Shown one piece after another: positions 5,224 through 46,386 of a stretch of 64,000 nucleotides of DNA. Under the pieces are notes generated by a model, which was not told the DNA's origin, did not search any database, and was given only the letters and a program-made list of their open reading frames with translations. Each line of letters starts with the position of its first letter. Within the stretch, counting starts at the first letter, position 1. This stretch comes from a virus, in the IMG/VR virus record IMGVR_UViG_3300033181_000085, positions 9,669 to 73,668 of that record. The stretch is one strand, 5' to 3'. Made by a program: the position numbers and the translations under genes.

Positions 5224-5333
5224 ACACCTCCTGACATCTCAGTAATATTCAAAGTTCATGCCGCTTCGTTTATCGATCTCGACCTTGATTCGTTGTGGGC
5301 GCGTGGTTCGCTTCGTTTGCTTTATGCGTATTT

Positions 5334-28221: not shown

Positions 28222-29160
28222 ATGGAAAAACAGCTATCTAGGCAAACATACGGACAAATACTGCGCCACGAGCGAGAAGCGAGAGGGTGGACACGAGACA
28301 CATTGGCCGATTTGATAGGTGTGTATAAGACCTATATAGGAAGGTGGGAACGGGAGGAGGCAATCCCCTCATACCCTGATCAGCAAAGGCTCTGCGAATT
28401 ATTTGGTAAGACAGCCCAAGAACTCGGTATATCAGATGCTCCTTCTCTAAGGCCACCATACTACCTTATAACGGGCAATGAGACCGATTTATTTGGTCTT
28501 AAGCTGATACATGAGCGGGAATCAAGAGGCTGGTCTCAAGCTGATCTAGCCCTCGCGTTGGAAGTACCATATCCTAATATCAGCAGGTGGGAACGCGGAG
28601 AGACGCTTCCTACTCATGATTATTGGCAAAAGCTGACTGAGCTGTTGGGTAAAACAGTCCAGGAGCTAGGGTTAGTGCCGAATATGCCAGAACAAGAATC
28701 TAGAGTAGATTCATCTCGTTACTTCGGGCAAAGGCTGAGGTACCTACGTAAGCTAAAAGCATGGAACCAGGAGCGTTTAGCCAGTGAAGTAGGAACTACG
28801 CTCAGGTCGATTATGCGGTGGGAACAAGGTAAAACACTCCCTGAAATTCGCTTTCAGCAACGTCTCTGTGAGATATTCGGGAAAGACCCTGAAGAACTCG
28901 GCTTTATACAAGAGCGAGTAGCATTGACAGATACACCTCCACTTTCTGCATATAATGGTAAAGCATCCAATTTTTTGTTACTTAGACAACGCCAAGTGCG
29001 CGGATGGACGCAGCGTGACGTAGCCGAAAAGATTTCTACACATGTAATGAATGTCAGCCGTTGGGAACGTGGTGAAGCTGTTCCTGACGAAGACTTTCAG
29101 CGGAAGCTCTGCGATCTGTTCCAGAAAACAAACGAGGAGTTAGGCTTTACTAGCTCATAA
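28222..29160 (+). CDS. Transcriptional regulator with four tandem XRE-family HTH domains
   Basis: Four repeats of LR..RE.RGW(T/S)Q..LA…(I/V)SRWE.G…P….Q.(K/R)LCE.FGK..EELG. Confidence 0.9.
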   Translation: MEKQLSRQTYGQILRHEREARGWTRDTLADLIGVYKTYIGRWEREEAIPSYPDQQRLCELFGKTAQELGISDAPSLRPPYYLITGNETDLFGLKLIHERESRGWSQADLALALEVPYPNISRWERGETLPTHDYWQKLTELLGKTVQELGLVPNMPEQESRVDSSRYFGQRLRYLRKLKAWNQERLASEVGTTLRSIMRWEQGKTLPEIRFQQRLCEIFGKDPEELGFIQERVALTDTPPLSAYNGKASNFLLLRQRQVRGWTQRDVAEKISTHVMNVSRWERGEAVPDEDFQRKLCDLFQKTNEELGFTSS

Positions 29161-29260
29161 TAGGTATCTTACTCCATAGATTTGCTGGCATTCTTCCTAA
29201 AACTTTGTCATGACTAGCCTTTGTGTTCGGTCATCACATAAGAGTTGTATAATTAACGGC

Positions 29261-29866
29261 ATGCTGCCAGTGCTTAAAAACCCTACCATTTATAAAAAAC
29301 GTTATTCCACCCTCCAGAAACGCTATCTGCAATCACGCAAACCCGATAGTAAGCGGGTCGTAAAACACGAGCAAAGTATCCAGAATCAATTATGTGCCTG
29401 GTTTAAGCAAGTCCTTCCTGGCGAACATTTCATCAGCGATACCGGCAGCGGGGCGTTTAATAGCGATTATGCCAAAGTGCAGCACAACCGCCAGCAAAGT
29501 CATAAGCATGAACCTGATATCAAAATACTAGCCATGCGTCGTGGATATGGAGCGATGGTGCTAGAACTTAAGGCCGACAGTACCGAGCTGCGTATGAAGC
29601 GAAATGGCACAAAGATACGGGTGCGAACAAAGAAAGTACCCGTGTCACGAAAATACCCTGAAGGCATAAAGATCATTGAGCGCGATTATAAAATACGCAA
29701 GAAAGGTGATTGGGCTTCGCTTCACCTGGAGCAACAAGCTGAAGTGTTACTTGATTATGAACGCAAGGGGTACTTCGCTCGCTTTGCTGTGGGGCTTGAA
29801 CATGCGAAGAAATTAATCTCGTGGTATTTTGATTTGCCTTATACGGAGAATAGCGAACTCTTCTAG
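29261..29866 (+). CDS. VRR-NUC / Holliday-junction-resolvase-like PD-(D/E)XK nuclease
   Basis: EQSIQNQLCAW…EPDI…GAMVLELKA…QQAEVLLDYERKGYFARFAVG. Confidence 0.7.
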   Translation: MLPVLKNPTIYKKRYSTLQKRYLQSRKPDSKRVVKHEQSIQNQLCAWFKQVLPGEHFISDTGSGAFNSDYAKVQHNRQQSHKHEPDIKILAMRRGYGAMVLELKADSTELRMKRNGTKIRVRTKKVPVSRKYPEGIKIIERDYKIRKKGDWASLHLEQQAEVLLDYERKGYFARFAVGLEHAKKLISWYFDLPYTENSELF

Positions 29867-29930
29867 TGTAATCAGAGATTAAGAGGTGTCATGTAAACAT
29901 GCCTCGACGCGTAAAGTACAAGGAGGCGCT

Positions 29931-29970
29931 ATGAAGAAGTGTAGCATCAATGGATGCGATAGGCCCATTC
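29931..29970 (+). pseudogene. 5' stub of an HNH-type endonuclease gene cut by the BREX block
   Basis: MKKCSINGCDRPI matches the CSIDGC module of 9065-9793; same upstream ggaggcgctatgaaga leader. Confidence 0.55.
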
Positions 29971-30310
29971 TGATCATCTCTTGCGTAAGCGGACTAGCTA
30001 TCGAGCAGCTGGAGAGATTTAATTTGAAGAGCGCTATCGTCATACGGTGGAGGAAAAACTCGTTTGAAGACTCACGCGCTTGAGCAATCAAGTGGACTTC
30101 CAGTCCTTGTCTCAAGCCGGCTAAATGAAAGAACTCCACCTGACTTTATGTATCAGAAGAGTAGCCAGAACAGATGAACAACAGCGTGACAGTTGCATTT
30201 GAGGGTTATCTCATGTAAAATGAAACGCACAGAAATAGCTGGGAGTAGGTGGGAATAGTACCGGTGCTGCTTCCTTCGACCCTATTTTTCTCTTGGAGGA
30301 ACAATCAAGC

Positions 30311-31099
30311 ATGGCTGCGAACGCTGCGCCGTATTCCAGCAAGATCATCAAAGCTAGCGCTTTGTTGCCTGATACTAAGCTCCTGTTGGCACATTGGAAT
30401 CTCTCGGATGATGTCGAGACCAATTTACGCTGTATCCGGCAGGAGAACCTGTTCGGGAAAGCCTCGAGGTCCCGTGTCATCGAGATACTGGCGATCTTTA
30501 AACAACGGTATCTTCGCGACCCACAGGTTCTGGCTGCGTTGGTAACCCTGGTACAGGCAGACATAACCGCAACTATGCTTGATCCTATACTCTATTTTCT
30601 AACTGTCCAGGCTGACCCCCTTTTGTATGCAGTTGTGACCGAAGTGCTGACACCGCTTATAGGTCGGGGGCAGCCAGAGATCTACGTTACAGATATTGAG
30701 GACTGGATTCGCAAGCAGATAGTGGGTGAGAAGACCCAAGGCTCTTGGACAGAGGTGACAACAAATCGCGCAGCTCGCAGTATTCTTGCGACGCTACGAG
30801 ACTTTCATCTCTTGCAGGGGCAAGTGAAAAAGCGACTGGCTTTGCTCTATCTGCCTGTCACGTCGTTCGCTTTTATCGCCTTTCTGCTCAGCCGCACGCA
30901 GCGGTCGGGCGATCGCCTGCTGCATGACCCATCCTGGCAGGTGTTTTTCCTCTCTGTACAGAACGTAGAGCATTTCTTTTTTGAGGCCCATCAGGAGCAA
31001 CTGTTGGAATATCATGCTGCCGGGCGGGTCATTCGCATCGAATTCCCAGCAACCACCTTAAAGGAGTATGCCCATGCTCTCGCTCGAAGAGCGCATTGA
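30311..31099 (+). CDS. brxA: BREX protein BrxA (DUF1819-like)
   Basis: First gene of the operon; YSSKIIKASALL…QENLFGKASRSR motif; SD GGAGGA. Confidence 0.85.
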   Translation: MAANAAPYSSKIIKASALLPDTKLLLAHWNLSDDVETNLRCIRQENLFGKASRSRVIEILAIFKQRYLRDPQVLAALVTLVQADITATMLDPILYFLTVQADPLLYAVVTEVLTPLIGRGQPEIYVTDIEDWIRKQIVGEKTQGSWTEVTTNRAARSILATLRDFHLLQGQVKKRLALLYLPVTSFAFIAFLLSRTQRSGDRLLHDPSWQVFFLSVQNVEHFFFEAHQEQLLEYHAAGRVIRIEFPATTLKEYAHALARRAH

Positions 31100-31655
31100 C
31101 CTGCTGGAAAGCGACCTAAAGGCCGTGCCCATGCGGATCAGCGTTTATCATGATCTGCCCTTTGCCATTCTGCTCTATGAACCAGAAAAGGAATGGGAGC
31201 TACGTCGCCAGGCTAGGCAATTGGCAACTCGCTTGGAACAAACAGGAAAACGGTTGCGGTTCATATCGCTGGCAAAGTTACTTTGGCAGGCCATCGCAGA
31301 TTCCGAGGGACTGGATGCAGTAGTAGAACTGGAAAAGAAGCGTGGCTTCCGACTCGCACAGGAACAGGTGACCACCTACCTTTCTGATCCCGACTGGCGC
31401 CCGTTGCCGAATACAATTGCTGGACAGATGTGGGGATTGAACCCGGAGAAACATCTGGTCTTTTTGATGCGGGCGGGGGCGATGGCGCCAGCCATTTACC
31501 ATATGTCGAAGCTGCTGGATGAACTGCATGGCAAGACGCTGGTGCCGGTGATCCTCTTTTATCCCGGAACGCTGGAGGGCACCACCGGGCTGCGTTTTAT
31601 GGACCTGAAAGACCGCGAGGCCATGGGCAACTATCGCGTGAAGATTTACGGATAG
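31068..31655 (+). CDS. brxB: BREX protein BrxB (DUF1788-like)
   Basis: PFAILLYEPEKE…PVILFYPG…NYR; position in operon. Confidence 0.85.
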   Translation: MPMLSLEERIDLLESDLKAVPMRISVYHDLPFAILLYEPEKEWELRRQARQLATRLEQTGKRLRFISLAKLLWQAIADSEGLDAVVELEKKRGFRLAQEQVTTYLSDPDWRPLPNTIAGQMWGLNPEKHLVFLMRAGAMAPAIYHMSKLLDELHGKTLVPVILFYPGTLEGTTGLRFMDLKDREAMGNYRVKIYG

Positions 31656-31717
31656 CCAGTCAAACGAGGGAAGCCGCTTCTGTAATCACATCAACTGGAC
31701 GTTGGAAGGAGACCGGG

Positions 31718-34700
31718 ATGCGCATCAAATACCTGCTCAAGCGCGACCTCAGTGAGCGCATTGAAGAAGTCATCAAGCTCAATCAGGCTGACGAAGAAAC
31801 GGTCTATACCGAACTGACCGAATATGTTGCCACCGCTCGCATCCATGAGCATTACCGCACGCTGCTGCACGCGATGGCTGAAGCTCCAGCGGAACCACAT
31901 GAGGGTGTTGGCGTCTGGATCTCCGGCTTCTTCGGCTCCGGTAAATCGTCCTTTGCCAAGAACCTGGGCTATGTGCTGGATAATCACACGGTGCAGGGAC
32001 ACCGGGCAGCGGACCTCTTTGCGCAGCAGTTGCAAGATGAGGAAATTACCCGGCTCGTCGAGTTCATCACGCTCAAGATTCCGACCAAGGTGGTTATGTT
32101 TGATGTCTCAGTGAGTACCGCCGTCAGACTGGGCTCTGAACGCATGGCCGAGATCATGTACCGCGAACTACTCCAGGCATTGGACTATGCCCAAGACTAC
32201 ACCATTGCCGAACTGGAGTTTGAACTCGAAAAAGAAGGCAAGCTGGAAACATTCATGCAGCGCTGCCAGGAGCAGTATAACAAACCCTGGCGCACGGTGC
32301 GGACGGGTGCGCAGCGGACCAATCGCGCCAGCACGATCTTACACCTTATGGACCCTATCACCTATCCCAACGCCGACTCCTGGGAGCAAGCAGCGACCAG
32401 GCACGAGCCGGATATTACGATTGGCGGCATTGTCACTCGCGCCTTTGAATTGATGGCGCTGCGGCAGCCAGGCAAGGCGCTGGCCTTCATCATCGATGAG
32501 GTGGGGCAATACGTCGCCCAGAGCGCTAGCAAGATTGAAGACCTGCGCGCCGTCGTGGAGCAGTTTGGCAAAGAAGGTAAGAACCGCGTTAAGCAGCGAC
32601 AGGCCGTTGCGCCGGTTTGGATTGTGGTTACCAGCCAGGAGAAGCTTGATGAGGTTGTCGATGCGATTGGCTCCAAGCGCGTGGAACTCGCAAAGCTACA
32701 AGATCGCTTTCGCTATCACGTTGATCTTGCTCCAGCAGATATTCGGGAGGTTGCCACTAGGCGTGTGCTGGCGAAACGCGAGGATGCGATCCCAATCCTC
32801 AAGCAGCTCTATGCGACGACACAGGGCCAGCTGAACACCGCCTGCCGTCTTCAGGATACCAGCCGCCAGAGCCAGGTTCGTGAGAGCGACTTTGTGCAGT
32901 TCTATCCCTATCTGCCGCACTTTATTGATCTGTCGATTGATATCATGTCCGGCATTCGGCTCCAGCCGGGCGCGCCCAGGCATATGGGCGGCAGCAACCG
33001 GACGATTATCAAGCAGGCCCATGAAATGCTGATCTCGCCGCGCACGCTGGTGGCGGACCGCCAGGTGGGGGCACTGGTTTCGTTGGATTTGCTTTATGAA
33101 CTGGTGGAGGGGAACCTCTCTTCCGAGCGCCAGAAAGATATCAGTGATATTGTGCAGCGTTGGCAGGACGACCCCCAGGATGGCGGTTGGGCAGCACGAG
33201 TTGCCCGGGTGATTTGCCTGCTGGAGTTCGTGCGCGATCTGCCGCGCACTGAGGCCAATTTCGCAGCGCTGCTGGTAGGTGAACTGGGCAAACCTGCCCC
33301 ACTGACGGAGGTGCAGACAGCGCTCGCCCGGCTGGAAGCGGCCCAGTTCATCCGCCTGACGCCAGAAGGCTATAAGCTGCAAACGGCCCAGGAGAAGCGC
33401 TGGATTGGAGAGCGGAATGCAATGGACCCCAAACACAAAGAGCGCAACGATATCAAGCGCGAAACTCTGGAAGACCTCTTTAAAGACCCACGCTTGAAAA
33501 CGTATCGCTACCGAGATTTGCGCACTTTCCAGATAGGCATCACAGTGGATGGGGCACGTGTCAGCGAAGGGCAGGTGCCGCTGGCGCTGTTGGTGGCCGA
33601 GGATGAGGGCGAGTATCAGCAGCGCTTGGAGGAGGCACGCAGCGATAGCCGCGCGCGTGGGCATCAGGATGAAGTATTCTGGGTCTTTGCCCTGACTTCA
33701 GAGGTTTATGACCTGATTAAGCAGCTCCATGCCTCGCGCCAGATGATTGGCAAATACAGCCAGTTGAGCGCGCAGGGCCGCATGATTGGCGAATATTCCG
33801 CGCCCCTGGAGAACGAGAAGCGCGAGGAGGGTCGCTTCCGCGACCGCCTGCGCGAGAAGATGCTGGAGGCGCTGAGCAGCGGGCAAGGAATCTTCCGGGG
33901 CGTCACCAGGGATGCATCGGATCTGGGGAAGACGCCAGCAGACATCTTCAAACATCTCTTTGATATAGTGGTGCCCGACCTCTATCCGAAGCTGGAAATG
34001 GGCGCGCGGCCCCTCAAGGGGACCGAGGGGGAGGAGGTGCTCAAAGCTGCCAATCTTAATGCGCTGCCGCAGATCTTTTATAACGGCGAGCAGGGGTTAC
34101 AGCTGGTCATCAAAGAGGGCAACAAATCCGTTCCCAACCGCGAGGCGCCGGTGGCGAAAGAGGTGCTGGACTATCTCGTCCGCGAGCATAGCTATGGGAA
34201 CAAGGTGACCGGCAAAGACCTGGAACAGCACTTCGTCCACAAGACTGGCTATGGGTGGGAACTGGATATGGTGCGGCTGATCCTGGCCGTGCTGCTCCGC
34301 GCTGGCGTTGTCGAAATCACCTCGCAGGGGCATCGCTACCGGGATCACCAGGACCCGCAGAGCCGTGCGCCGTTTGCCAATCTGACCACCTTCCGCAGCG
34401 CCTCTTTTGCGCCGCGGCAGCCGATTGACTTGAAGATACTGGCAGCAGCGGTGCGCCAGTTTGAGGAACTGACCGGGCATGAGGTGGATGTAGACAGTGG
34501 AGCCATTGCTCTGGCGCTGAAGCAGCTAGCAGGTGGCGAGCGAGAAGGGCTGCTCCCCGCGATGGCAGTGGTGCGCTCGGAAAGGCTCCCTGGTCTGGAG
34601 GCGCTGGAGACCTACCAGAAGACACTCGCGGAAATTCGTCAGGCAGATGCAGATGGCTGTGTGCAAATCCTGGCGGGAGAGGGCAATTCTCTCAAATCGG

Positions 34701-35368
34701 AGCGCGACCAGGCACGGCGTATCCGCGAAGCTGTCACCAACGAGCATCTGGCGCTGATTCGCCAGGCTCGGCTGGCGGCAGAAGAGCAATGGCCGCTGTT
34801 GGCAGGAGATGGCGCGACGCCCCAATTGGCCGAACAAGCTGAGGCGCTGCGAACCTTGCTTGGCGGCACTGCGCTCTATGAGCAGCTTACTCGCATGCAC
34901 ACACTCACCCAGGGAGTGAGCAGCGCCTATCGCCGGACCTATCTGGCAGAACATCAAGCGCGCTTTGAGGAATACTCCCAGGCGATTGATGAGATCAAAG
35001 GCCGCGCCGAATGGGCGACCATCCAGCCGAGCGGGCGCGCTAGCATCTTGCTGCCGCTCACCCAGCGCAGTTGTGAGCAGGCTGATCTGCCAGAGGGCGC
35101 GATGGTCTGCCAGCGCTGCAAGAACGGCCTGAGTCTCATCAAAGAGCAGCGGCAAAGCCTTCAGCCCTTGAAACAGGAGGCACTAAACCGGCTTTTTGAG
35201 GCAATTGCTGGATCCAATGGCGCAGCAAAACTCATCAAACGAGTACGGGCGACGAACTTCTTCCCCGATATGCTCGAATCGGAGCAGGAGGTGGAAGCGG
35301 CGTTGAGTCAATTGCGCGAGCTTCTCTTGAAACTGGTGGCTGAAGGCGCCAGGATTCGGGTGGAGTGA
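31718..35368 (+). CDS. brxC: BREX P-loop ATPase BrxC (PglY-like)
   Basis: GVWISGFFGSGKSS Walker A, FIIDEVGQY Walker B, VTSQE, FVQFYPY. Confidence 0.95.
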   Translation: MRIKYLLKRDLSERIEEVIKLNQADEETVYTELTEYVATARIHEHYRTLLHAMAEAPAEPHEGVGVWISGFFGSGKSSFAKNLGYVLDNHTVQGHRAADLFAQQLQDEEITRLVEFITLKIPTKVVMFDVSVSTAVRLGSERMAEIMYRELLQALDYAQDYTIAELEFELEKEGKLETFMQRCQEQYNKPWRTVRTGAQRTNRASTILHLMDPITYPNADSWEQAATRHEPDITIGGIVTRAFELMALRQPGKALAFIIDEVGQYVAQSASKIEDLRAVVEQFGKEGKNRVKQRQAVAPVWIVVTSQEKLDEVVDAIGSKRVELAKLQDRFRYHVDLAPADIREVATRRVLAKREDAIPILKQLYATTQGQLNTACRLQDTSRQSQVRESDFVQFYPYLPHFIDLSIDIMSGIRLQPGAPRHMGGSNRTIIKQAHEMLISPRTLVADRQVGALVSLDLLYELVEGNLSSERQKDISDIVQRWQDDPQDGGWAARVARVICLLEFVRDLPRTEANFAALLVGELGKPAPLTEVQTALARLEAAQFIRLTPEGYKLQTAQEKRWIGERNAMDPKHKERNDIKRETLEDLFKDPRLKTYRYRDLRTFQIGITVDGARVSEGQVPLALLVAEDEGEYQQRLEEARSDSRARGHQDEVFWVFALTSEVYDLIKQLHASRQMIGKYSQLSAQGRMIGEYSAPLENEKREEGRFRDRLREKMLEALSSGQGIFRGVTRDASDLGKTPADIFKHLFDIVVPDLYPKLEMGARPLKGTEGEEVLKAANLNALPQIFYNGEQGLQLVIKEGNKSVPNREAPVAKEVLDYLVREHSYGNKVTGKDLEQHFVHKTGYGWELDMVRLILAVLLRAGVVEITSQGHRYRDHQDPQSRAPFANLTTFRSASFAPRQPIDLKILAAAVRQFEELTGHEVDVDSGAIALALKQLAGGEREGLLPAMAVVRSERLPGLEALETYQKTLAEIRQADADGCVQILAGEGNSLKSERDQARRIREAVTNEHLALIRQARLAAEEQWPLLAGDGATPQLAEQAEALRTLLGGTALYEQLTRMHTLTQGVSSAYRRTYLAEHQARFEEYSQAIDEIKGRAEWATIQPSGRASILLPLTQRSCEQADLPEGAMVCQRCKNGLSLIKEQRQSLQPLKQEALNRLFEAIAGSNGAAKLIKRVRATNFFPDMLESEQEVEAALSQLRELLLKLVAEGARIRVE

Positions 35369-37719
35369 ACATGGAAAAAGCAATACGCAACACCCTGCGC
35401 AACGTCGTGACTGAGTGTCGCCGGGAGTTGGAGAAGGCGATTGGGGAACTGCTTCAAGGACAGTTTGGTATCCACATTGATGGCACGCTTGAACCTGTCG
35501 AGAAGCTGACACACCTCTCCCATGCTGATCAGGATTATCGCGCGCAGGTGGTAGCCTCGCTGGAGCATATCAAGGCAGTTGGGTTTACACCTGCTAGCGC
35601 CGTCGGCCAACTGATCCGCGAGGTGGCCTTTACCCATCTTAATCGCTTCTGCGCCTATAAGCTGCTGGAGAAGCGCCGCTTGATTCGAGAGACGATCAGC
35701 CGGGGGCTGAATTCCAACGGCTTCAAGTTCTATCTGGCCGACAACTCTGCGGATGAGGCGCTTTGGTCCGGCGGCAAGCAAGACCTGGCTTACCGGCATT
35801 TTCTGGAGTGGACAGGCGCAACACTTTCGGAGGAGATCGGCATCCTCTTCTCGCCCAACGACCCGGCCAACCGCCTCTTCCCGCCGCAGCGCGTGGTAGA
35901 GAAGGTGCTGGGGCTGATCAATAGCGCCGAACTGGCGGAAGTCTGGGATGAAGATGAGACGATTGGTTGGATTTATCAGTACTTCACGCCCAAAGAACTG
36001 CGCGATCAGGCGCGCAAAGAGAGTCAGGCCCCGCGCAACAGCTATGAACTGGCTTTCCGCAACCAGTTCTATACACCGCGCTATGTCGTCGAGTTCCTGA
36101 CTGATAACACGCTGGGCCGCCTGTGGTACGAGATGCGCCAAGGGCAGACGACACTGGCCGAACGCTGCCGCTATCTGGTCCGGCGCAAGCATCCCATCTG
36201 GCTCACTCCTGGCGAAGTGCCGCCGGAGCTATACCCTGGAGAGGGAGGGAGATCATTCTCTGATCAGGATGAAGCGATCTGGACCCGGCCCAATCCCACG
36301 ATTGAAACGTGGATGCAGATAGCCCACTATGCGCTGACGATAGACGGCTATAGCTATGCCCAGAAGCACTTTTCCTCGCCAGAGCAGGGAAAGCAAGACC
36401 CAACTGCTGTGGCGTTTGGACTAACTAACCTCAAGCAAGAGGAGTATCGTAAGACCGGCAAGTGGAATGGAACATTTGAGGAGCTGCGGGTCTGCCTATT
36501 TATCATACAGCGTGCCTGTCGCTGGAGCGATGAGGCGACGCCAGAGGGCGAGGATTGGGCGATGCTCCAGTCTCTCTATCGGGCGATCTGTGAGGCCTGG
36601 GAGCGCGAAGTCGAGGTGATTTTGCACCGCCTGAAGAAAGACCCACGCGAACTGCGCGTGCTGGATCCCGCCTGCGGCAGCGGCCATTTCCTTCTCTATT
36701 GCTTTGATCTGCTGCTGACCATCTATGAGGAAGCCTGGGAAGACCTTGACCTGGGGCCAGCGCTCCAACGGGAGTATCGCGGCGATCTGGCCGCCTATCG
36801 CGCCGCTGTGCCGGGGCTGATTTTGCGCCACAACCTACATGGGATTGATATTGACCTGCGCTCCACCCAGATCGCCGCGCTGGCCCTCTGGCTGCGCGCC
36901 CAGCGCGCCTATTTCGACCTGGGCCTGAAGGGCAACGAGCGCCCTCGCATCCGCCGCACTAATATTGTCTGCGCCGAGCCCATGCCAGGCGAATATGACC
37001 TGCTGAAAGACTTCGAGCGCACGCTGGACCCGCGCGCCTTGATTCCGTTGGTGGAGCAGGTTTGGGGGCAGATGAAGCTGGCCGCCGAGGCTGGCTCGCT
37101 GCTGCAAGTGGAGCGAGCCTTGCGCGATTCAATTCAGCAGGCCAAGCAGGGCTGGTTAGACACTAGGGGCGGCAATGAGCAACTGACGCTCTTCGAGCAG
37201 GGCAAGGCCCCAAAACAGCAGATGCTGAACTATGCTGGCGTCACGGATGTGGCGTTCTATGAGCAGGAGGCCGAGCCGCGTGCCTTGGAAGCCTTGCAGC
37301 GTTTTGCTGAGACGACGACAGGGCGCGATGGCTATACACGTCGCCTTTTTGCGGAGGATGCCACGCGCGGCTTCGCGCTGATCGAGGTGCTGGGCAAAGT
37401 GTATGATGTGGTGCTGTTGAATCCGCCTTTTGGCGAAGCCAGCAAGCCTTCAAAAGATTATCTTGAGAAGACCTACCGGCGCACCAAAAATAACCTCTAT
37501 GCCATGTTTATCGAGCGCGGTCTGGGGCTGCTGCACACAGGTGGCAGGCTCGGCGCGATCACCTCGCGCACTGGTTTCTTCCTCACCTCCTTTCAGAAAT
37601 GGCGCGAGGAGATTTTGCTTAAAGAAGCCCATCCAGTAGTCATGGCTGATTTTGGAGAAGGCGTACTGGATACAGCAACGGTGGAAACTGCTGCCTATGT
37701 GTTGGAGGTATGTCGATGA
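35365..37719 (+). CDS. pglX: BREX adenine methyltransferase PglX, catalytic part (likely ATG 35371)
   Basis: IGWIYQYF, QFYTPRYVVEFLTDNTLG, VLDPACGSGHFL (motif I), NPPF (motif IV). Confidence 0.93.
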   Translation: MNMEKAIRNTLRNVVTECRRELEKAIGELLQGQFGIHIDGTLEPVEKLTHLSHADQDYRAQVVASLEHIKAVGFTPASAVGQLIREVAFTHLNRFCAYKLLEKRRLIRETISRGLNSNGFKFYLADNSADEALWSGGKQDLAYRHFLEWTGATLSEEIGILFSPNDPANRLFPPQRVVEKVLGLINSAELAEVWDEDETIGWIYQYFTPKELRDQARKESQAPRNSYELAFRNQFYTPRYVVEFLTDNTLGRLWYEMRQGQTTLAERCRYLVRRKHPIWLTPGEVPPELYPGEGGRSFSDQDEAIWTRPNPTIETWMQIAHYALTIDGYSYAQKHFSSPEQGKQDPTAVAFGLTNLKQEEYRKTGKWNGTFEELRVCLFIIQRACRWSDEATPEGEDWAMLQSLYRAICEAWEREVEVILHRLKKDPRELRVLDPACGSGHFLLYCFDLLLTIYEEAWEDLDLGPALQREYRGDLAAYRAAVPGLILRHNLHGIDIDLRSTQIAALALWLRAQRAYFDLGLKGNERPRIRRTNIVCAEPMPGEYDLLKDFERTLDPRALIPLVEQVWGQMKLAAEAGSLLQVERALRDSIQQAKQGWLDTRGGNEQLTLFEQGKAPKQQMLNYAGVTDVAFYEQEAEPRALEALQRFAETTTGRDGYTRRLFAEDATRGFALIEVLGKVYDVVLLNPPFGEASKPSKDYLEKTYRRTKNNLYAMFIERGLGLLHTGGRLGAITSRTGFFLTSFQKWREEILLKEAHPVVMADFGEGVLDTATVETAAYVLEVCR

Positions 37720-39806
37720 ATGAGACCATCTTTCTGCGCCTGCTTGCACAAGATGAAAAAGGCCCTGCGCTAGTCGAGACTATCTCTGCATTACACCAAG
37801 GTAAGCACAATCAATTAATCTTCACTGTCGATCCCGATTCATTCGGACAAGTGCCTGGCACTCCTTTCGCCTATTGGGTCAGCGAAAAAATCAGGAGATT
37901 ATTCAAAGTAGTGCCGCCGTTTGAAAGCGAAGGTCGAGTGGTTCGTGCAGGATTACAGACAAGCGATGACACCCGTTTTGTACGTGCTTGGTGGGAGGTA
38001 TCTGCTGAGAGTTTAGCAAAGGGAACTTCTCAAATATCCCCTGAGGAGTTTCGCCAGCAAACTTATTCAGGCAAACGATGGGTGACTTTTGCCAAGGGAG
38101 GTGCTAATTCATCTTACTTTGCTGATATGCAAATGGTAGTAAATTGGGAACACGATGGAGAAGAAATGAAGGATTGGGCAGTTAATAATGCTGGTGACCC
38201 AAGAACTACTCATTGGTCGAGAAATATCCGTAGTACAGAATACTATTTCCGTCCCGGATTAAGCTGGCCACTTCGAACATATAAATTCTCCCCGTATATT
38301 GTTCCCAAAGGTTGTATTTTTAGTTTGAGCAGGTATCAAGCTTTCGCAGATGAAGATGATCTTGGGTGGTGCCTTGGATTGCTGAATGGAGCACCAGTAA
38401 ACCCGCTATTAAGGATGTGCTTAGAAGATTTTGAGCGCCCCAAATACGTGGTAGGGGTTGTTTCTATTTTACCTTTTCCTTTACCCTCTTTCAGCAATAG
38501 AGATAAGTTGGCATCTAATGCTCTTCAGTCTTTTAAGATCGTTAGGCAGTTATGGTCAGCAAGCGAAAATAGCCATTCTTTTAGCGTTCCAGCACTCTGC
38601 CAAATACCAGGAACAACCCTTGAGGAGCGTGCCGCCACCTGGCAAAACTATCTGAACGATGCTGAGCAAAAAATTAAAAAGTATCAGACAGAAACTGATG
38701 GTATAGTCGTTGCTTCCTACAGTATCGAAGAGGATGATCGCTTGGCTCTTGAAATGTCTCTGCCAAGCAGAGAAGATAGGTCAGAAACAAGCAATGAGCA
38801 GAGCGATGTACAAGAAGAGGTCGAGGAAACAGAGTTACTTATTACCGACCTGAGGGAACTGATTGTTGATCTTCTTTCCTACGCCATTGGCTGCGCTTTT
38901 GGCCGCTGGGATATACGCATCGGGCGTGATCGCAACCTTGTGCCGCCTCTGGCAGAGCCGTTTGCGCCGCTGCCAGTCTGCGCGCCGGGAGCGCTGGTCG
39001 GGCCGGATGGTCTGCCCGCCAGGCCGGGGCACATCGTCAGCGAGGCATGGCTATGCGCCCGGCCTGACGCCATCACCCTGCCGCCTGAGGGCAGCGTCCC
39101 CAGTCCCAGCATCCCTGATGAGGTCTATCCGCTCTCCATCGCCTGGGATGGCATCCTGGCCGATGACCCCGATCACGAGTCCGACATCTTGCGCCACGTG
39201 CGCGCCGCGCTGGACCTGCTCTGGGGCGAGCGCGCTGAGGCTATCGAAGCAGAGGCTTGCGGCATCCTAGGCGTGCGCAACCTGCGTGATTACGTCCGCA
39301 ATCCGCGCAGCTTCTTCGACTATCATATCGGGCGCTACTCCAAGAGCCGCCGCAAAGCGCCAATCTACTGGCTGCTGCAATCGCCGGGCAAGCGCTATAG
39401 CCTCTGGCTCTATTATCACTGGCTGGACCCGGACCTGCTCTTCAAGGCACTCACGCTCTATGTCCAGCCCAAAATCCGTCTAGAAGAAAGCCGCCTGCAC
39501 GAGATGCGCGCCGCCCCCCAGAGCGCAGGCGACACGGGCGCGGCGCGCCAGGCCGGGCAAGCCTTCGAGCGACAGGAGACGCTGCTGGCCGATCTGCGCG
39601 ACTTCCATGATCGCCTAGCGCGTGCCGCCAAGCTCTATCTCACTCCAGACCTCAATGATGGCGTACTGCTCAACATCGCACCGCTCTGGGAACTAGTCCC
39701 TTGGAAAGAAGCAAAAAGCGCCTGGGAGCAGTTGCTGGCGGGCAAATACGGCTGGTCCTCCATTGGCAAGCAGTTGCGCGAGAAAGGGATCGTAAAGGAA
39801 AAATAG
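37716..39806 (+). CDS. PglX C-terminal part (target-recognition region plus C-terminal domain) as a separate ORF
   Basis: SD GGAGGT plus ATGA overlap; GLQTSDDTRFVRAWWEV, KGG, YFRPGLSW; SRRKAPIYWLL, DLNDGVLLN. Confidence 0.85.
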   Translation: MNETIFLRLLAQDEKGPALVETISALHQGKHNQLIFTVDPDSFGQVPGTPFAYWVSEKIRRLFKVVPPFESEGRVVRAGLQTSDDTRFVRAWWEVSAESLAKGTSQISPEEFRQQTYSGKRWVTFAKGGANSSYFADMQMVVNWEHDGEEMKDWAVNNAGDPRTTHWSRNIRSTEYYFRPGLSWPLRTYKFSPYIVPKGCIFSLSRYQAFADEDDLGWCLGLLNGAPVNPLLRMCLEDFERPKYVVGVVSILPFPLPSFSNRDKLASNALQSFKIVRQLWSASENSHSFSVPALCQIPGTTLEERAATWQNYLNDAEQKIKKYQTETDGIVVASYSIEEDDRLALEMSLPSREDRSETSNEQSDVQEEVEETELLITDLRELIVDLLSYAIGCAFGRWDIRIGRDRNLVPPLAEPFAPLPVCAPGALVGPDGLPARPGHIVSEAWLCARPDAITLPPEGSVPSPSIPDEVYPLSIAWDGILADDPDHESDILRHVRAALDLLWGERAEAIEAEACGILGVRNLRDYVRNPRSFFDYHIGRYSKSRRKAPIYWLLQSPGKRYSLWLYYHWLDPDLLFKALTLYVQPKIRLEESRLHEMRAAPQSAGDTGAARQAGQAFERQETLLADLRDFHDRLARAAKLYLTPDLNDGVLLNIAPLWELVPWKEAKSAWEQLLAGKYGWSSIGKQLREKGIVKEK

Positions 39807-42422
39807 ATGGGCATCGTCAGCGATTATCTTCGAGATCTGATTGCCAGGCAGCTCAGCGAAAAGGGCATCATCGTTTGGTTTGACCCGGAGGGGCACTACC
39901 GAGAGTTTGCGCAGACGCTGGCAATGCCAAATACTACCATTGCGCGCTACGAGGGCAGCTTCTTTAGCTTGCGGTATCAGGTTGATGCCCTCATGGAGCA
40001 GGACGAGCCGCCACGCCTGGTCGTCTATATTCCGTTGGCCGAAGAAGATACCCAGCATGCGCTGATCGAGTTGAGTGGTGCCGGGGTAATCCTCAAGCCG
40101 GGGAACCCTGCGAGGCCCTGCAACACGCGCCTCTCGGTCGTAGCGAAAGGTGCCCTGCGTGATCGCCGCACCCCGAGAGAACTGGCAGAGCTTGAAAATC
40201 AGGTAGAGGAAGGTAAGCTTTCTCTAGCGGACCTTGACCGACTCGCCGATCAGGATGGTTTCGGAGTGCTCGCCATTCTCTTTGAAAAGACGGACCCGAC
40301 CTCTATAGCCTTGGCCCTGCTCGGCAGCACCCGCTCGGATGCTGAGATTCAGGCGAAGCAAGCAGGAGCCGAGATTGCTCGCCTGCTCACAGACACCTTT
40401 GGGCTTGATCTGCCACCCACCGAAACATTAGAGGAATGGCGTATCCGTCTGGCGCGTCATCTCCTTGGCACCGATTTGCTCGCCAATCTGCATGGCCCCA
40501 TTCCATCCCAGCTTGCCAGCATCAGCGTTGCTCCCAGTGGACGCATCCGCGCCGCTTGTCTTGATCTAGTGAGCACCTGGCGTCGCCTACGCGATCTGGA
40601 TGAGAGCTATGCCCGCGCTGCCAGCCGTATCGAGCAGGAACTACAACTGGGTAGCATCGAGTTTAAACTGGAACAGATTCGGGACTGCGAAACCTTTGCC
40701 GCCATTGAAGACGCTCTGCAGACAGCCGTTGAATCTGCCTTGCTCGCCAACCCCTCCGATGCGTTGCTTACGTTCGTTCAGCAGCGCAAGACCGGCTACT
40801 GGAGTCTGCATCAGCCGGAGATTGCGGCTCGATGGGAACTGGCACTGGTCGCAGCCCAACTGCTGCATGCTGCCAGGCGTATTGAAGCCGCCCTCAAGCC
40901 ATTTAGTCTTTCTGCGAGCGAGCTCTTCCGTGCCTATACGGAAGGAGAACATCCCTGGTGCGAACTGGATACCTTTCAGCGGCGCTTGGAGTATCGCTGC
41001 TGGGGCTTTGACTTTGATGACGCTTGGCATCGGACATTGCTTCATTTGACGAATCGTGCTCGTCAACGCTATATGGAGGTGGGTGGGCTGCTGGCAGAAC
41101 GGTTTGTCCGGGCTCTGGAGCAGGATCAATTTCGGCTGCCAGGCTTGCGTACCCAGCGTGAAACGTTCTCCAGTATGGTCGCGCCAGCGCTGCGCGAGGG
41201 GAAAACCGCCTATCTCCTGGTGGATGCACTCCGCTTTGAGTTGGCGCGTGAACTGGTATGTGACCTGGGCGATGACTATCAAGTGACGCTCTTAGCGGGA
41301 CTAGGCACGGTACCATCAATCACTGAGATCGGGATGGCTGCGCTCATGCCTGGTGCCGAGGGCGACGCGCAAGTGGTGCCCACCGGCCCGGGCAAAATCG
41401 GGCTGAAGGTTGGCGAAACGGTGCTCAAAGATCGTAAGAGCCGGCTCGAGTGGCTCAAACAGCATGCACCGCTGGCCTACAGGGGCGAGCAAGCCAGGGT
41501 CTTTGTGACCCGGCTGGAAGACTTTCCCTTCTCTACGAAAGGCATCAAGGCCGGGATTGAGACTGCCGATCTGTTGGTGATGACCTCTCAGGAACTGGAC
41601 GAACTCGGCGAAACCGATAACCTGATGCTGGTACGCACCATGATGGACGGCATTCTCGTCAATCTGCGTCGCGCCATTCGACGGCTCGCCGAACTGGGTT
41701 GCAAAACCATGATCGTTACCGCCGATCACGGCTTTCTTCTGGGCGATGAACTGGGCGAGGATATGAAGCTGGATGCACCAGGTGGAGAGACACTGGACCT
41801 GCATCGGCGCGTCTGGGTTGGGAAAGGCGGTGCCGCTGGCGGTACGTCCTTCCTGCGTGCGCCGCTGTCGGCTTTTGGGCTCAGCCATGACCCCACACTG
41901 GAGATCGCTGTGCCCTATGGCTTCGCGGGCTTCAAAGCCGCCGGAGGCTCCCTTGCCTACTTCCATGGAGGCTTAGCACCCCAGGAAATCGTCATTCCGA
42001 TGGTGGAGATCGTGCCAACTGCCGATCCTAGTCCATTAGCGAGCGGAGACATCGCTTGGTCGCTCACCCTTGGCTCTAAAAAGATCAGTACCCGCTTCTG
42101 TACGGTGCAGATCAACGGGCACAGCAACGGACTTTTCGCTGCTATGAGCGCTCTACCGCGTGTGCGTGTAGAAATCAAGGCAGGGAAAGATGTTCTCTCG
42201 ATGCCCATCGCTGCCTCGTATGGCTATAGTGAGGCCACTGGTGATGTCCAACTCGAGTTCACTGGCGAAGGGAGCCGTGACGTGGTTGCCAATACCGTGA
42301 CACTGATGATTACCCAGGAACCCAGCCAGCCAACCATACTGGTTTCGATTCATTTGCTCGATGCCGTGACCGGCCGGGAATTGGTTCGACTCGACAAAAT
42401 CGAGATGGCGATCACCATCTAA
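39807..42422 (+). CDS. pglZ: BREX PglZ alkaline-phosphatase-like protein
   Basis: AYLLVDALRFELA, PSITEIGMAAL, IVTADHG, YFHGGLAPQE. Confidence 0.93.
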   Translation: MGIVSDYLRDLIARQLSEKGIIVWFDPEGHYREFAQTLAMPNTTIARYEGSFFSLRYQVDALMEQDEPPRLVVYIPLAEEDTQHALIELSGAGVILKPGNPARPCNTRLSVVAKGALRDRRTPRELAELENQVEEGKLSLADLDRLADQDGFGVLAILFEKTDPTSIALALLGSTRSDAEIQAKQAGAEIARLLTDTFGLDLPPTETLEEWRIRLARHLLGTDLLANLHGPIPSQLASISVAPSGRIRAACLDLVSTWRRLRDLDESYARAASRIEQELQLGSIEFKLEQIRDCETFAAIEDALQTAVESALLANPSDALLTFVQQRKTGYWSLHQPEIAARWELALVAAQLLHAARRIEAALKPFSLSASELFRAYTEGEHPWCELDTFQRRLEYRCWGFDFDDAWHRTLLHLTNRARQRYMEVGGLLAERFVRALEQDQFRLPGLRTQRETFSSMVAPALREGKTAYLLVDALRFELARELVCDLGDDYQVTLLAGLGTVPSITEIGMAALMPGAEGDAQVVPTGPGKIGLKVGETVLKDRKSRLEWLKQHAPLAYRGEQARVFVTRLEDFPFSTKGIKAGIETADLLVMTSQELDELGETDNLMLVRTMMDGILVNLRRAIRRLAELGCKTMIVTADHGFLLGDELGEDMKLDAPGGETLDLHRRVWVGKGGAAGGTSFLRAPLSAFGLSHDPTLEIAVPYGFAGFKAAGGSLAYFHGGLAPQEIVIPMVEIVPTADPSPLASGDIAWSLTLGSKKISTRFCTVQINGHSNGLFAAMSALPRVRVEIKAGKDVLSMPIAASYGYSEATGDVQLEFTGEGSRDVVANTVTLMITQEPSQPTILVSIHLLDAVTGRELVRLDKIEMAITI

Positions 42423-42446
42423 CCGCAGGAAGAAGGGAGTACGATC

Positions 42447-44477
42447 ATGTCTGCGCTTGACCAGAAGGCCAACGAGGTGTTCGCCGGAAAAGTGGTGCGC
42501 AAAGACCTGGTACGCAAGGTCAAAGTAGGCGCCAATGTGCCAGTCTATGTGCTGGAGTATCTGTTGGGCAAATACTGTGCTACAGATGACCCGGCGGCTA
42601 TTCAGGCCGGCCTACGCCTGGTGCATTTTCAGCTCAGCGAGAACTTCATCCGCCCTGACGAAGCCAATAAAGCCATGTTTGAGGTAAAGGACAAAGGGCA
42701 CAAGACCTTGCTGGATAAGATTCGCGTCCGCTCCACCGAACGGGAGGATTGGGGCGAGATGGCAAACTTCGGCAACCGCTTCCTGCATGTGCCCGATCAC
42801 CTGCTGCGGCAGTTCCCACGTCTCTTAGAGGGTGGCATCTGGGCGCACATCAATCTGGAATACCGTATGGACGAGGATGAGGATACCCCCAAGAGTCATC
42901 CCTTCTATGTCACCGAAATCAAACCGATTCAGCTCGCCGGCTTTGACCTGGAGGATTACCTGAAAGGCCGCCAGCAGTTCAGTACCGAGGAGTGGATGGA
43001 CCTCCTGGTGCGTACCATTGGCCTGGAGCCAGCTGGAATGAGCCAGCGTCTCAAGCTGCAGCTCTTGGTGCGGCTGATTCCGATGGTGGAGCGCAACTAT
43101 AACCTGATCGAACTAGGGCCACGTGGCACTGGCAAGAGCTTTGTCTACCGCGAGACGACTCCCTATGCCATCTTGGTCTCCGGTGGCAAAACGACTGTTG
43201 CCAACCTCTTCTACAATATGGGCACGGCCAAGATGGGCTTGGTTGGCCTCTGGGATGTGGTAGCTTTTGATGAGGTGGCCGGCATTGAGTTCAGCGATAA
43301 GACCACTGTCCAGATCCTCAAGGACTATATGGAATCCGGTTCCTTCAGTCGCGGGCGGGAAGAAATCGCAGCAGAAGCCTCGATGGCCTACCTTGGCAAC
43401 ATCAACCAGCCTGTTGACGTGTTGGTGCGTACCTCGCACCTCTTTGCTCCGCTGCCTGATGCTATGCGTGATGACATGGCCTTTATAGATCGCCTGCACT
43501 ACTATCTGCCAGGTTGGGAAGTTCCCAAGATGTCTACCGACCTTCTGACCGAGGGCTACGGCTTTGTAGTAGACTATCTGGCCGAGGCGTTGCGAGAACT
43601 ACGCCGCCAGAATTTTACTGATATGATTGACGCCCACTTCTCGCTGGGTTCCCATCTCAACGCCCGTGATGCCAAAGCGGTGCGCAAGACTGTTTCTGGC
43701 TTGGTCAAACTCCTCCATCCCAATCGGGAGGTGACGGTAGAGGAGTTGCGCAGCTATCTGGAACTTGCATTGGAAGGACGCCGCCGTGTCAAGGAGCAAC
43801 TCAAAAAGCTAGGCTCTTTCGAGTATTACCAAACCAGCTTCTCTTACCTGGAGAACGAGAGCATGCAGGAACATTTCGTTGGGGTACCAGAGGGTGGTGG
43901 ACGTGGTCTGATCTCCTCTGATCCGCTCCCGCCGGGAAGTGTGTATGCTGTTACCCTCACCGACGAAGACAAAGTGGTCCTGCACCGGATGGAGGTGGGC
44001 AAGATTGAGGGCGGCTCTGGCAAGCTTCGTATCGCTGGCACTATCGATAGTGCCACCAAAGCTTCATTGACTACAGCTTTTGATTACCTGCGTGTCCGCC
44101 GACGCGAGTTAGGGATAGACCGCGAATTGGATACCTATGATTACCACGTCCAGGCGGTGGATCTGAGTGGTTCGGGCGAGCGTGTTCGGGCCGGGATAGC
44201 CTTCTTCATCGCAGTGTACTCTGCAATCAAAGAGCGGGGTGTCCGACCAGCGCTGGTCGTGCTGGGTGACCTGACCATCCAGGGTAATGTGCTGGCTGCT
44301 CGTTCACTCGTTGAGCCACTCCAGGTAGCGATGGATAATGGGGCCAAACGGGCACTCATCCCTGTCGAGAACAGGCGTTCCTTCCTGGAAGTGGCGGCGG
44401 ATATTGTCGAGAAGGTCGATCCCATCTTTTATGGGGAACCCTTAGCTGCTGCAGTGAAGGCACTCGGGGCAGAATAA
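42447..44477 (+). CDS. brxL: BREX BrxL (AAA+ plus Lon-like C-terminal domain)
   Basis: ANVPVYVLEYLLGKYC, ELGPRGTGKS Walker A, FDEVAG, YLPGWEVPK. Confidence 0.95.
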   Translation: MSALDQKANEVFAGKVVRKDLVRKVKVGANVPVYVLEYLLGKYCATDDPAAIQAGLRLVHFQLSENFIRPDEANKAMFEVKDKGHKTLLDKIRVRSTEREDWGEMANFGNRFLHVPDHLLRQFPRLLEGGIWAHINLEYRMDEDEDTPKSHPFYVTEIKPIQLAGFDLEDYLKGRQQFSTEEWMDLLVRTIGLEPAGMSQRLKLQLLVRLIPMVERNYNLIELGPRGTGKSFVYRETTPYAILVSGGKTTVANLFYNMGTAKMGLVGLWDVVAFDEVAGIEFSDKTTVQILKDYMESGSFSRGREEIAAEASMAYLGNINQPVDVLVRTSHLFAPLPDAMRDDMAFIDRLHYYLPGWEVPKMSTDLLTEGYGFVVDYLAEALRELRRQNFTDMIDAHFSLGSHLNARDAKAVRKTVSGLVKLLHPNREVTVEELRSYLELALEGRRRVKEQLKKLGSFEYYQTSFSYLENESMQEHFVGVPEGGGRGLISSDPLPPGSVYAVTLTDEDKVVLHRMEVGKIEGGSGKLRIAGTIDSATKASLTTAFDYLRVRRRELGIDRELDTYDYHVQAVDLSGSGERVRAGIAFFIAVYSAIKERGVRPALVVLGDLTIQGNVLAARSLVEPLQVAMDNGAKRALIPVENRRSFLEVAADIVEKVDPIFYGEPLAAAVKALGAE

Positions 44478-44778
44478 GTTCTACTCCATAGGCGTCTAGC
44501 GTCAACGAGACAGGCTCACTTCTTTTAGGTATGAGCCCCACGTTAATATCTATATTGCCAATGATAACTGGGAACACTGGAGAAATCTGCCCAATACGTT
44601 GGCTTATGTAAACAGTAGGTTGCACTACGATGTCGGTGCGGCCATTAAAGCTACAAGGAACGCAGCAAATAGTGATAAGGACGTCTTAGCGTTGTCGAGT
44701 TCTACTGTTCCAACGGCTGGGTTCTGTAAGCACAGATTTCAACCCGGATTTTGCAAACAAGGCTGCCATAAAAGATAG
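44478..44778 (+). pseudogene. Headless 3' remnant of a phage gene right after brxL (…FCKHRFQPGFCKQGCHKR*)
   Basis: 93 open codons between an in-frame TAG (44497-44499) and the stop at 44776-44778; no start or SD. Confidence 0.5.
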
Positions 44779-44839
44779 CAGAGCCGCGAAAAGCTCTTAT
44801 CGCACGGCTCCCAGGAGAATGCGTAAAGCTGGTTTGGCC

Positions 44840-45031
44840 CTAGCTCTTTTTAGAGCGCATCGCCTTTTCTTTATACAAACGATACAGTGCGGCTTCCCGT
44901 TCACTACGAATGAGAAGCCGTTTAATACGTGGCCCGAAATGCTTACCTATCCATTCCAAGACATTATACGTCGGGAATACGAACGCTGTCAGAAATATGA
45001 GCGCATCGTGAAATGATATATGGAGATGCAT
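44840..45031 (-). CDS. Small holin-like membrane protein
   Basis: One TM plus basic tail, end of lysis module. Confidence 0.5.
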   Translation of the reverse strand: MHLHISFHDALIFLTAFVFPTYNVLEWIGKHFGPRIKRLLIRSEREAALYRLYKEKAMRSKKS

Positions 45032-45056
45032 CGCGGTGTTTGTTTTTAGGATGAAC

Positions 45057-45632
45057 TTATTGTATCTGGAGGTTTGGGTCTGCTGGCGTGGCTTGTGGCT
45101 GTGCTGGTGCTGCATTCGGATCAGCGGCTGGAGCTGCGGGTTGTTCTGCCGGAGGATTTACTACGGGCGCAGGTACTTCTGGATTCGCGGCAGGCGTTGC
45201 TTGGCCTTGGTCAGTTGGTTGCGTCGTATCAGCAGCAGGGGTTATCTGTATTTGGTCGGCAGCTACCGTCATTTGTTCGGATTGGCTAGGGGCTGCGGGT
45301 GGGTTCTGACCGCTTAACTTGGCGACTTCCTCCTGCAAGAACTTCTCAGCCATCTGTAGATCGTGCTGGACATTCTCGGCGACAACCTTTCCTTCCGCGA
45401 TAATCTTCTCGGCTATCTCTTTAGTCAGTGGCTCGTACTCCTTGACTAGAGCGTAAGCGCCTTTGAGGTCTTGCATGATCTTATTCATAACTGGTCCTTG
45501 TTTAATTGACTGATGTAATTTTAGCATATCCCGCTTTTCTTCCAACTCACGCCACAGTATCCGGGTAGTCTTGATTAACGACTCTATAATCTCCCGGTCT
45601 GCTTCTTGCTGGTCAAAGAGCGGCGAATCCAT
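45057..45632 (-). CDS. Coiled-coil protein with Pro/Ala/Gln-rich low-complexity C-terminus
   Basis: ORF; PAEQPAAPAADPNAAPAQP tail. Confidence 0.6.
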   Translation of the reverse strand: MDSPLFDQQEADREIIESLIKTTRILWRELEEKRDMLKLHQSIKQGPVMNKIMQDLKGAYALVKEYEPLTKEIAEKIIAEGKVVAENVQHDLQMAEKFLQEEVAKLSGQNPPAAPSQSEQMTVAADQIQITPAADTTQPTDQGQATPAANPEVPAPVVNPPAEQPAAPAADPNAAPAQPQATPADPNLQIQ

Positions 45633-45639
45633 GCCCTGC

Positions 45640-46382: not shown

Positions 46383-46386
46383 CTTA

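Follow-up and report, generated by a model that had tools for sequence, protein, structure and literature searches.

A complete type 1 BREX operon with a two-gene PglX at a variable cargo site on a tailed-phage record

Can a tailed phage carry a bacteriophage exclusion (BREX) system in full, where would such an operon come from, and what would it do for its carrier? BREX systems are among the largest defence systems and are usually treated as cargo of chromosomes, plasmids or integrative and conjugative elements (ICEs). The question was raised by a stretch of 64,000 nucleotides (the window), which comprises positions 9669–73668 of the 79,714-base IMG/VR virus record IMGVR_UViG_3300033181_000085 from rock metagenomes. 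Positions 30311–44477 of the window hold a complete and uninterrupted type 1 BREX system consisting of brxA, brxB, brxC, pglX (as two genes), pglZ and brxL. We read this locus as a phage with a captured BREX system at a cargo site, which would function in the defence of the lysogen and in self-methylation. A probability of about 0.72 was given to this reading, with the functional part taken by analogy from studied systems. Type 1 BREX and phage-borne defence cargo are both already known kinds, and the present case belongs to them.

Seven co-directional open reading frames (ORFs) filled the operon with next to no gaps. The genes were named using PADLOC and Pfam, with E-values ranging from 4e-27 to 6e-286 (Table 1). 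A preliminary description of the locus, made from the sequence without database searches, had claimed a complete type 1 BREX system with intact motifs. Both statements were borne out: the six functions were recovered on seven genes, and the motifs of PglX, BrxC, BrxL and PglZ were all present. BrxC contained the Walker A motif GFFGSGKS and the Walker B motif FIIDE, BrxL the corresponding GPRGTGKS and VAFDE, and the N-terminal half of PglX the S-adenosylmethionine (SAM) motif DPACGSG and the catalytic NPPF. Alignment to a solved PglZ (PDB 9nv3) revealed that PglZ retains DALRFE, the conserved threonine, TADHGF and HGG. The hallmarks of type 1 BREX were found side by side, namely a PglZ with catalytic residues, a P-loop ATPase of the BrxC/PglY kind, a PglX methyltransferase with a C-terminal domain bearing the target-recognition domain (TRD), here on two genes, as well as BrxA, BrxB and a Lon-like BrxL, in the gene order brxA-brxB-brxC-pglX-pglZ-brxL. 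The type 1 BREX systems of E. coli HS, Salmonella D23580 and Acinetobacter (PMC6326788; PMC11341690; 10.1101/2021.12.19.473356) have the same functions, order and motifs. In contrast to these, the operon described here lies in a phage genome and not on a chromosome or plasmid, its PglX is encoded by two genes split at the position of Salmonella residues 654–659, and neither a BrxR/WYL regulator nor an accessory gene was found at the operon. Identity to solved BREX proteins was low (phmmer E-values of 1e-20 to 1e-32). No stops or frameshifts were found in the seven BREX genes over 14.2 kb, and the ratio of nonsynonymous to synonymous substitution rates (dN/dS) against bacterial relatives was 0.04–0.20. 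By these comparisons the BREX genes were shown to be intact and under purifying selection.

Unlike in the systems named above, PglX is encoded here in two parts. The N-terminal half, composed of a helical bundle and a gamma-class N6-adenine methyltransferase (the ‘M’ subunit), matched Salmonella PglX (8c45) and covered positions 1–657 of the 1332 positions of the PADLOC PglX profile. The C-terminal half comprises the TRD, spacer helices and a C-terminal region (an ‘S’-like subunit), and its residues 43–402 aligned with residues 648–987 of 8c45. The stop of the first ORF lies at 37719 and the most likely start of the second is the ATG at 37716, which results in an ATGA overlap; a GGAGG is located 7 nt upstream of this ATG. 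In Salmonella PglX the hinge spans residues 654–659, the TRD residues 662–849 and the spacer helices residues 850–960 (PMC11341690). Judged from the position of the break relative to this hinge, the methylase is therefore split from the specificity module. Among the metagenomic relatives with both PglX parts, 55 of 61 were split at the same hinge and 6 were fused. More than 100 nt (up to 7 kb, with inserted genes or spacers) lay between the halves in 17 relatives. Since the split is common to 55 of the 61 relatives, the comparison showed it to be native and not the result of damage, and the ‘M plus S’ PglX is the common form in a large environmental clade.

Inside the C-terminal half, TRD and spacer form a cassette of low guanine-plus-cytosine (GC) content. 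This cassette (37785–38880) was without DNA similarity to the loci L030 (a 290-kb contig) or L011, while both sides of it were 84–92% identical. The GC content jumped from 0.45 to 0.71 at 38880, and the region matching the cassette was lower by 6 GC points on average in 41 relatives. The cassette was replaced relative to the closest relatives, and its pattern is the one expected of an exchangeable specificity cassette and not a phage-specific oddity. The soil runs X3 and X4 yielded no pieces over ~37710–38780 or over the flanks of the block. Since such uncovered parts are uninformative, the replacement rests on the DNA comparison with L030 and L011 and on the GC content instead. A joint from 36071 to 38894 in X1 was discounted, as one of its sides comprised no more than 26 letters. 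Another 20 soil and sediment runs, which shared 5–13% of the words, were left out of the comparison. Several further peculiarities of PglX were observed. L030 contains a HigB/HigA toxin-antitoxin pair between its split PglX halves (L030:12182–12900) and a second, single-chain PglX-like methylase of 1360 aa between brxB and brxC (L030:2119–6201). The locus L154 has a single-chain methylase only, at the brxB/brxC position, and adjoins a TniQ gene. The N-terminal half of the PglX described here carries an insert of ~115 aa (residues ~299–414; window 36217–36628) between helical bundle and methylase domain. This insert varies among relatives and is much shorter in L030.

On both sides the operon is embedded in phage genes, ~30 kb to the left and ~25 kb to the right. 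The left side encodes RecT, a RecE-like exonuclease, RtcB, four HNH endonucleases, two TnpB-like proteins and a regulator with four helix-turn-helix (HTH) domains. On the right side and on the other strand, tail-fibre-size proteins, Dit (649 aa, phrog_33), the tape measure protein (TMP; 871 aa, phrog_2723, 9e-64), Neck1 (phrog_26, 1e-18) and a Mu gp36/adaptor-like protein were found, the last one by Atlas features with a score of 0.99. With these tail and head-tail joining genes the phage is a tailed one (Caudoviricetes). A large serine recombinase of 521 aa with Resolvase, Recombinase and Zn_ribbon domains is encoded at record positions 3671–5236, outside the window, and represents the integrase expected of a temperate phage; a tyrosine integrase was not found. 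Because of this recombinase on the same record, lysogeny is plausible and the phage is probably temperate.

How the operon came to this place was deduced from its composition and its relatives. With 57–58% the GC content of the BREX region exceeded that of the left (46%) and the right flank (50%), a rise of 7–11 points in agreement with the preliminary description; it was close to that of L154 (56.7%), an 81-kb contig of the same rock series in which a TniQ gene precedes the BREX locus, and unlike that of the backbone. DNA identity to bacterial BREX loci (73–91%) started and ended at the operon edges. L154 matched 30210–31656 at 86% and 39807–44484 at 91% identity, L030 matched 30232–44476 at 78–85%, and the match to L003 (92% identity) reached 44489. 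In the metagenome-assembled genome (MAG) behind L003 only a 380-nt end of brxL was assembled and no further BREX was found. At the protein level L154 was 92% (BrxA), 89% (PglZ) and 96% (BrxL) identical, while L030 was the better match for BrxC (83%) and the N-terminal half of PglX (88%), so that the operon is a mosaic within one clade. Soil metagenomes X3 and X4 contributed pieces of 90–95% identity, which lay within 30311–44393. For the spacers 29970–30209 and 44490–44530 (searched as 29948–30231 and 44485–44860) no match was found in any fetched locus, and a search for flanking repeats or transposon ends around the block gave nothing beyond chance-size matches. The proposal that the operon had been acquired thus gained support from the GC rise and from a homology to bacterial loci that starts and ends at the operon edges, with a block size of ~14.3 kb. 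These data support foreign, horizontally acquired DNA.

The same proposal was also backed by related phages without the block, whose comparison had been suggested and was carried out using the ~200-aa gene upstream of the operon as anchor. Nine fetched contexts of this gene and the present one were compared, a small sample of distant relatives (54–85% anchor identity). In these ten contexts the position was empty in 5, held a Type III restriction-modification (R-M) system in 1, BREX in 1 and other cargo in 3. In L146, L147, L148, L149 and L151 opposite-strand genes followed directly after the anchor gene. L150, L152 and L153 had other small cargo. The 100-kb contig L145 had an intact HNH gene (310 aa) together with a Type III R-M pair at the site (L145:10648–15952; Mod of 610 aa with PADLOC MTase_III at 1.8e-101, Res of 765 aa with REase_III at 1.6e-20). 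The tail modules of L147 and L148 were syntenic with that of the present phage (38–68% protein identity). In L147 the homologue of the small ORF at the right edge of the site was convergent and located ~180 nt after the ~200-aa gene, and the empty site accordingly equals this gene pair. Variable cargo including defence systems at one position corresponds to a defence hotspot in the sense of Rousset et al. (2022), and by this comparison of gene contexts BREX was shown to be placed at a variable cargo site. In the 42–48-kb relatives L147–L149 the anchor gene ends the tail/lysis operon; in the present phage it instead comes last in the opposite (early) operon. At the convergence point the two genes retain their arrangement, with the modules on either side swapped.

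At the left edge, positions 29855–29947 aligned with L145 10571–10664, which comprise intergenic sequence, ribosome-binding site (RBS) and the first codons of the intact HNH gene. The HNH start MKKCSINGCDRPI matched MSKCSIGDCKELA of L145. The likeness ended after about codon 13 and none was found beyond, in support of the earlier statement that an HNH gene had been cut after 13 codons; this loss of all but the first codons also speaks for acquisition. A stretch of 16 nt with RBS and start was identical to the phage’s own HNH gene at 9065. For the right edge a headless phage gene immediately abutting brxL had been described, which was only partly confirmed. The frame is without an in-frame start, but it was not cut by the block, as residues 2–83 of its relatives were matched, and a gap of 54 nt separates it from the brxL stop. 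Using phmmer on 1.84 billion proteins, P0182, P0184 and P0185 were found (best E-value 1e-12), with query residues 13–89 aligned to residues 2–83. By tblastn, residues 2–83 of P0182 were placed on window positions 44536–44766 (pairwise 3.6e-19). The family consists of proteins of ~75–86 aa. Taken by itself the open frame was within chance (22% of shuffles), with a GC content flat by codon position, and no match was found in GenBank phages. The frame was also considered as the 3′ remainder of the HNH gene and rejected, as no significant likeness was observed. Behind this gene 4 terminator-like sites were observed versus 0.9 expected.

Table 1. Features of the BREX locus and its edges (window coordinates).
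Feature	Position	Strand	Evidence or remark
Block with DNA homology to bacterial BREX loci	30210..44489	+	L154, L030, L003 alignments
brxA	30311..31099	+	PADLOC BrxA 3.7e-27; Pfam PF08849
brxB	31068..31655	+	PADLOC BrxB 4e-33; Pfam PF08747
brxC (ATPase)	31718..35368	+	PADLOC BrxC 5.5e-235, full length
pglX, N-terminal half	35371..37719	+	PADLOC PglX 3.4e-227; Eco57I, MmeI_Mtase domains
pglX, C-terminal half	37716..39806	+	PADLOC PglX profile positions 664–1265 of 1332
TRD-plus-spacer cassette, low GC (44%)	37785..38880	+	Inside the C-terminal half of pglX
pglZ	39807..42422	+	PADLOC PglZ 3.8e-97; Pfam PF08665
brxL (Lon-like AAA+)	42447..44477	+	PADLOC BrxL 6.4e-286; Pfam BrxL_N, BrxL_ATPase, Lon_C
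Conserved phage gene (~200 aa), left anchor of the cargo site	29261..29866	+	61 relatives, 41–85% identity
HNH homing-endonuclease remnant	29855..29969	+	Intergenic sequence, RBS, ~13 codons from ATG 29931
Spacer upstream of brxA, origin unmatched	29970..30209	.	No match to any fetched locus
Small conserved gene (~80 aa), Cys-rich C-terminus	44531..44778	+	ATG (44531) 2 nt out of frame
Terminator-like hairpins, both strands	44763..44845	.	Where rightward and leftward operons converge
Small phage ORF, right anchor of the cargo site	44840..45115	-	Homologue in L147

Could the association of BREX and phage be an artefact, with a bacterial BREX contig joined to a phage contig during assembly? The metagenomic source, the GC steps at both edges and the related BREX loci in the same sample series (L154) would fit such a chimera. 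However, a single Logan contig of 75,940 bases at depth 32 crossed both junctions (28001–47000), and overlapping contigs of a second sample (depths 9.8, 9.2, 9.3, 5.9 and 8.7) covered the same stretch. Unspanned junctions or a coverage step, named beforehand as signs of a chimera, were not encountered; the contigs crossed both junctions evenly, with neither a depth step nor an alternative join there. The exact BrxA and BrxL proteins were present on ENA, JGI and Logan contigs, which were 100% identical to the window across both junctions. As both Logan runs are possibly the source of the record, the samples are not independent and their agreement means consistency, not independent replication. 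Apart from the 16-nt HNH start no self-similarity and no repeat was found at the junctions, and the left junction lies inside a phage gene with an intact form in L145. The BREX loci of the series are only 73–91% identical with a different pglX arrangement, so that such loci could not have been collapsed together. A chimera is consequently considered highly improbable. The nature of the carrier deserves more attention. Six-frame searches with PF03237, PF03354, PF17289 and PF04233 as well as PHROGs and Pfam scans of the ORFs revealed no terminase, portal, MuF or capsid gene on the 79.7-kb record, and the large terminase, portal and major capsid protein expected of a tailed phage were accordingly not found. 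The record may therefore be an incomplete genome or a defective prophage, which is the main caveat on the term phage genome. With a defective prophage or a phage-derived island in a bacterial chromosome, BREX would be found as in an ordinary defence island. In line with this, four assemblies break off in the late operon, with right ends that differ by no more than ~140 bases, one contig starts beside the integrase gene, and other IMG/VR provirus records with BREX have adjoining defence-island genes. On the other hand, CheckV rated the record as 100% complete, phage genes with intact long ORFs (TMP, Dit and an ORF of 2532 aa) are present on both sides, the relatives sharing the tail module are phage contigs of 42–48 kb, and the depth of 32x was even with no bacterial flank assembled. 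In view of these data a defective prophage or island is unlikely.

A different doubt concerns the function of the operon. BREX might be a recent silent passenger, unexpressed or incompatible with the phage and heading for loss. No sigma-70 consensus or promoter-like site was found upstream of brxA, the GC content was without drift towards the backbone, the start of the small gene directly behind the operon is lost, and the block makes up 18% of the record length. These points are opposed by seven genes without stop or frameshift and with all motifs kept, by their low dN/dS, and by an operon more compact than that of L030 with its three accessory inserts. Moreover, a relative keeps Type III R-M at the same site, so defence cargo is maintained there. 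A silent passenger is thus quite improbable, and a BREX promoter would be expected in the spacer upstream of brxA. For a captured and functional BREX in a phage, the absent promoter consensus and head genes nevertheless count as points to the contrary, together with a backbone present only in runs that may be the record’s own source, with a host deduced from relatives only, and with the fact that the phage was not encountered in a version lacking BREX.

The capture of BREX by a phage, which we prefer, would have proceeded as follows. A tailed phage has probably captured a type 1 BREX operon, compact and complete, whose source was either bacterial or a transposon. This operon would have landed after the ~200-aa gene, at the short stretch where rightward and leftward operons converge, and the insertion would have removed the homing HNH gene except for ~13 codons. 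In a lysogen the operon would be expressed, and the two PglX chains, the ‘M’ methylase and the TRD-bearing ‘S’-like chain, would together with BrxB, BrxC and PglZ methylate an asymmetric motif, which in type 1 BREX has 6 bp, on host chromosome and prophage. The full complex with BrxL would block the replication of unmethylated incoming phage DNA. Virions from such a cell would carry the mark and would therefore be immune to their own BREX. Superinfection defence and pre-methylation of the carrier, as already proposed in the preliminary description, are what we infer from known BREX behaviour, and expression, methylation, resistance and lysogeny are to be taken in the same way. With its clear boundaries, the phage genes on both sides and a relative with Type III R-M at the same site, the case shows that tailed phages can ferry whole BREX systems, that even a 14-kb defence system fits a phage genome, and that phage cargo sites exchange epigenetic self/non-self systems. 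A doubtful variant is that BREX is carried chiefly as an epigenetic passport. In the systems studied so far, methylation by PglX requires BrxB, BrxC and PglZ, and a phage needing BREX marks would therefore carry nearly the whole operon. If so, the marked virion DNA would enter hosts armed with the same specificity, and through the hinge-split PglX and its exchangeable TRD cassette such phages would be able to alter BREX specificities and pass them from host to host. As a compact natural operon of 14.2 kb, the locus should be clonable for work on split PglX and TRD swaps.

BREX as cargo of mobile elements is not new. SXT ICEs of Vibrio carry BREX. The plasmid pEFER does so as well (PMC8565348). 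Here too a whole BREX is mobile-element cargo, with a close relative (L154) next to a TniQ gene; here, however, BREX travels in a tailed phage, whose packaging capacity is limited. According to Rousset et al. (2022; PMC9122126), the defence hotspots of P2-like phages and P4-like satellites contain short systems and lack BREX and others of its size. They share with the present site the fixed position between conserved phage genes and the differing cargo (BREX, Type III R-M, other or none), but differ from it in that here the cargo amounts to 14.3 kb in a ~80-kb phage of an uncultured lineage. For PglX, the type 1 BREX of Brevibacterium casei comes closest in form, as its PglX consists of two consecutive coding sequences (Milman et al., 2023; PMC9881135). 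There, the break follows the variable region and is linked to programmed inversions (PMC9881135), whereas here it precedes the TRD and coincides with the hinge between methylase and TRD; the two halves overlap by ATGA, and there are neither a recombinase nor inverted repeats. In a 2026 survey of BREX diversity the word ‘split’ is absent. The arrangement also resembles HsdM/HsdS of Type I R-M systems, with methylase and DNA-specificity module on separate polypeptides and the TRD-plus-spacer region as a low-GC exchangeable cassette. Unlike Type I R-M no HsdR-type nuclease is found here, and unlike HsdS the C-terminal half has one TRD plus a BREX-specific C-terminal region.

The host of the phage is probably a Ktedonobacteria-like member of the Chloroflexota, as suggested by its relatives. 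Relatives of PglZ and BrxL are named Ktedonobacteraceae or Ktedonobacterales (MAGs). Of the TnpB-like genes at window positions 6810–8000 and 17347–18519, the first was 69–71% identical to multi-copy genes in 144 of 169 Ktedonobacteria genomes. One of these genomes, G116, is unpublished, and the TnpB result is independent of it. A search for the Dit-like protein in the 169 genomes gave weak domain matches only and no related prophage (the unpublished G123 was left unused).

Several features of the backbone were recorded along the way. The four-HTH protein (312 aa; 28222–29160) lies 1.1 kb upstream of brxA and matched only the HTH parts of the PADLOC RmrA, control-protein and capH models. One Logan contig begins at record ~3651, 20 bases away from the serine integrase gene on its 3′ side, and the right end of the four assemblies lies at record 79590–79728; the two may be attachment (att) or genome-end positions. 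The 2532-aa ORF (60924–64000, on to record 78190) has one pectate-lyase-like domain and precedes the adaptor gene, a position at which one would expect head genes. Using megablast with both flanks, no close DNA relatives were found in GenBank phages. Single-protein scans of IMG/VR with a 569-aa tail protein, the four-HTH protein and BrxL gave no result, and an AlphaFold model of a 338-aa protein made without alignment was unusable (pLDDT 34.5).

Finally, the rarity of phage-borne BREX was estimated. Within a limited literature collection, no account of a phage genome with a complete BREX was found. In GenBank phage records (n=50,697), searches with PglZ and BrxL matched 7 records each; the ones among them that could be judged from the listing comprised short fragments, small contigs from fecal metagenomes and a Salmonella contig of 501 kb. 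IMG/VR contained at least 38 records or loci with BrxL. Five of the BrxL records were checked; four were provirus calls, and two had flanks with Mrr, methylase, KAP NTPase, D5 primase and resolvase. Because of such defence-island-like flanks, those records were not accepted as clear phage-borne BREX. The 31-kb IMG/VR record L108 carries a BREX operon with an HNH gene like that of the present phage ~8 kb downstream (L108:20258–20689), and is possibly a second phage-borne BREX.

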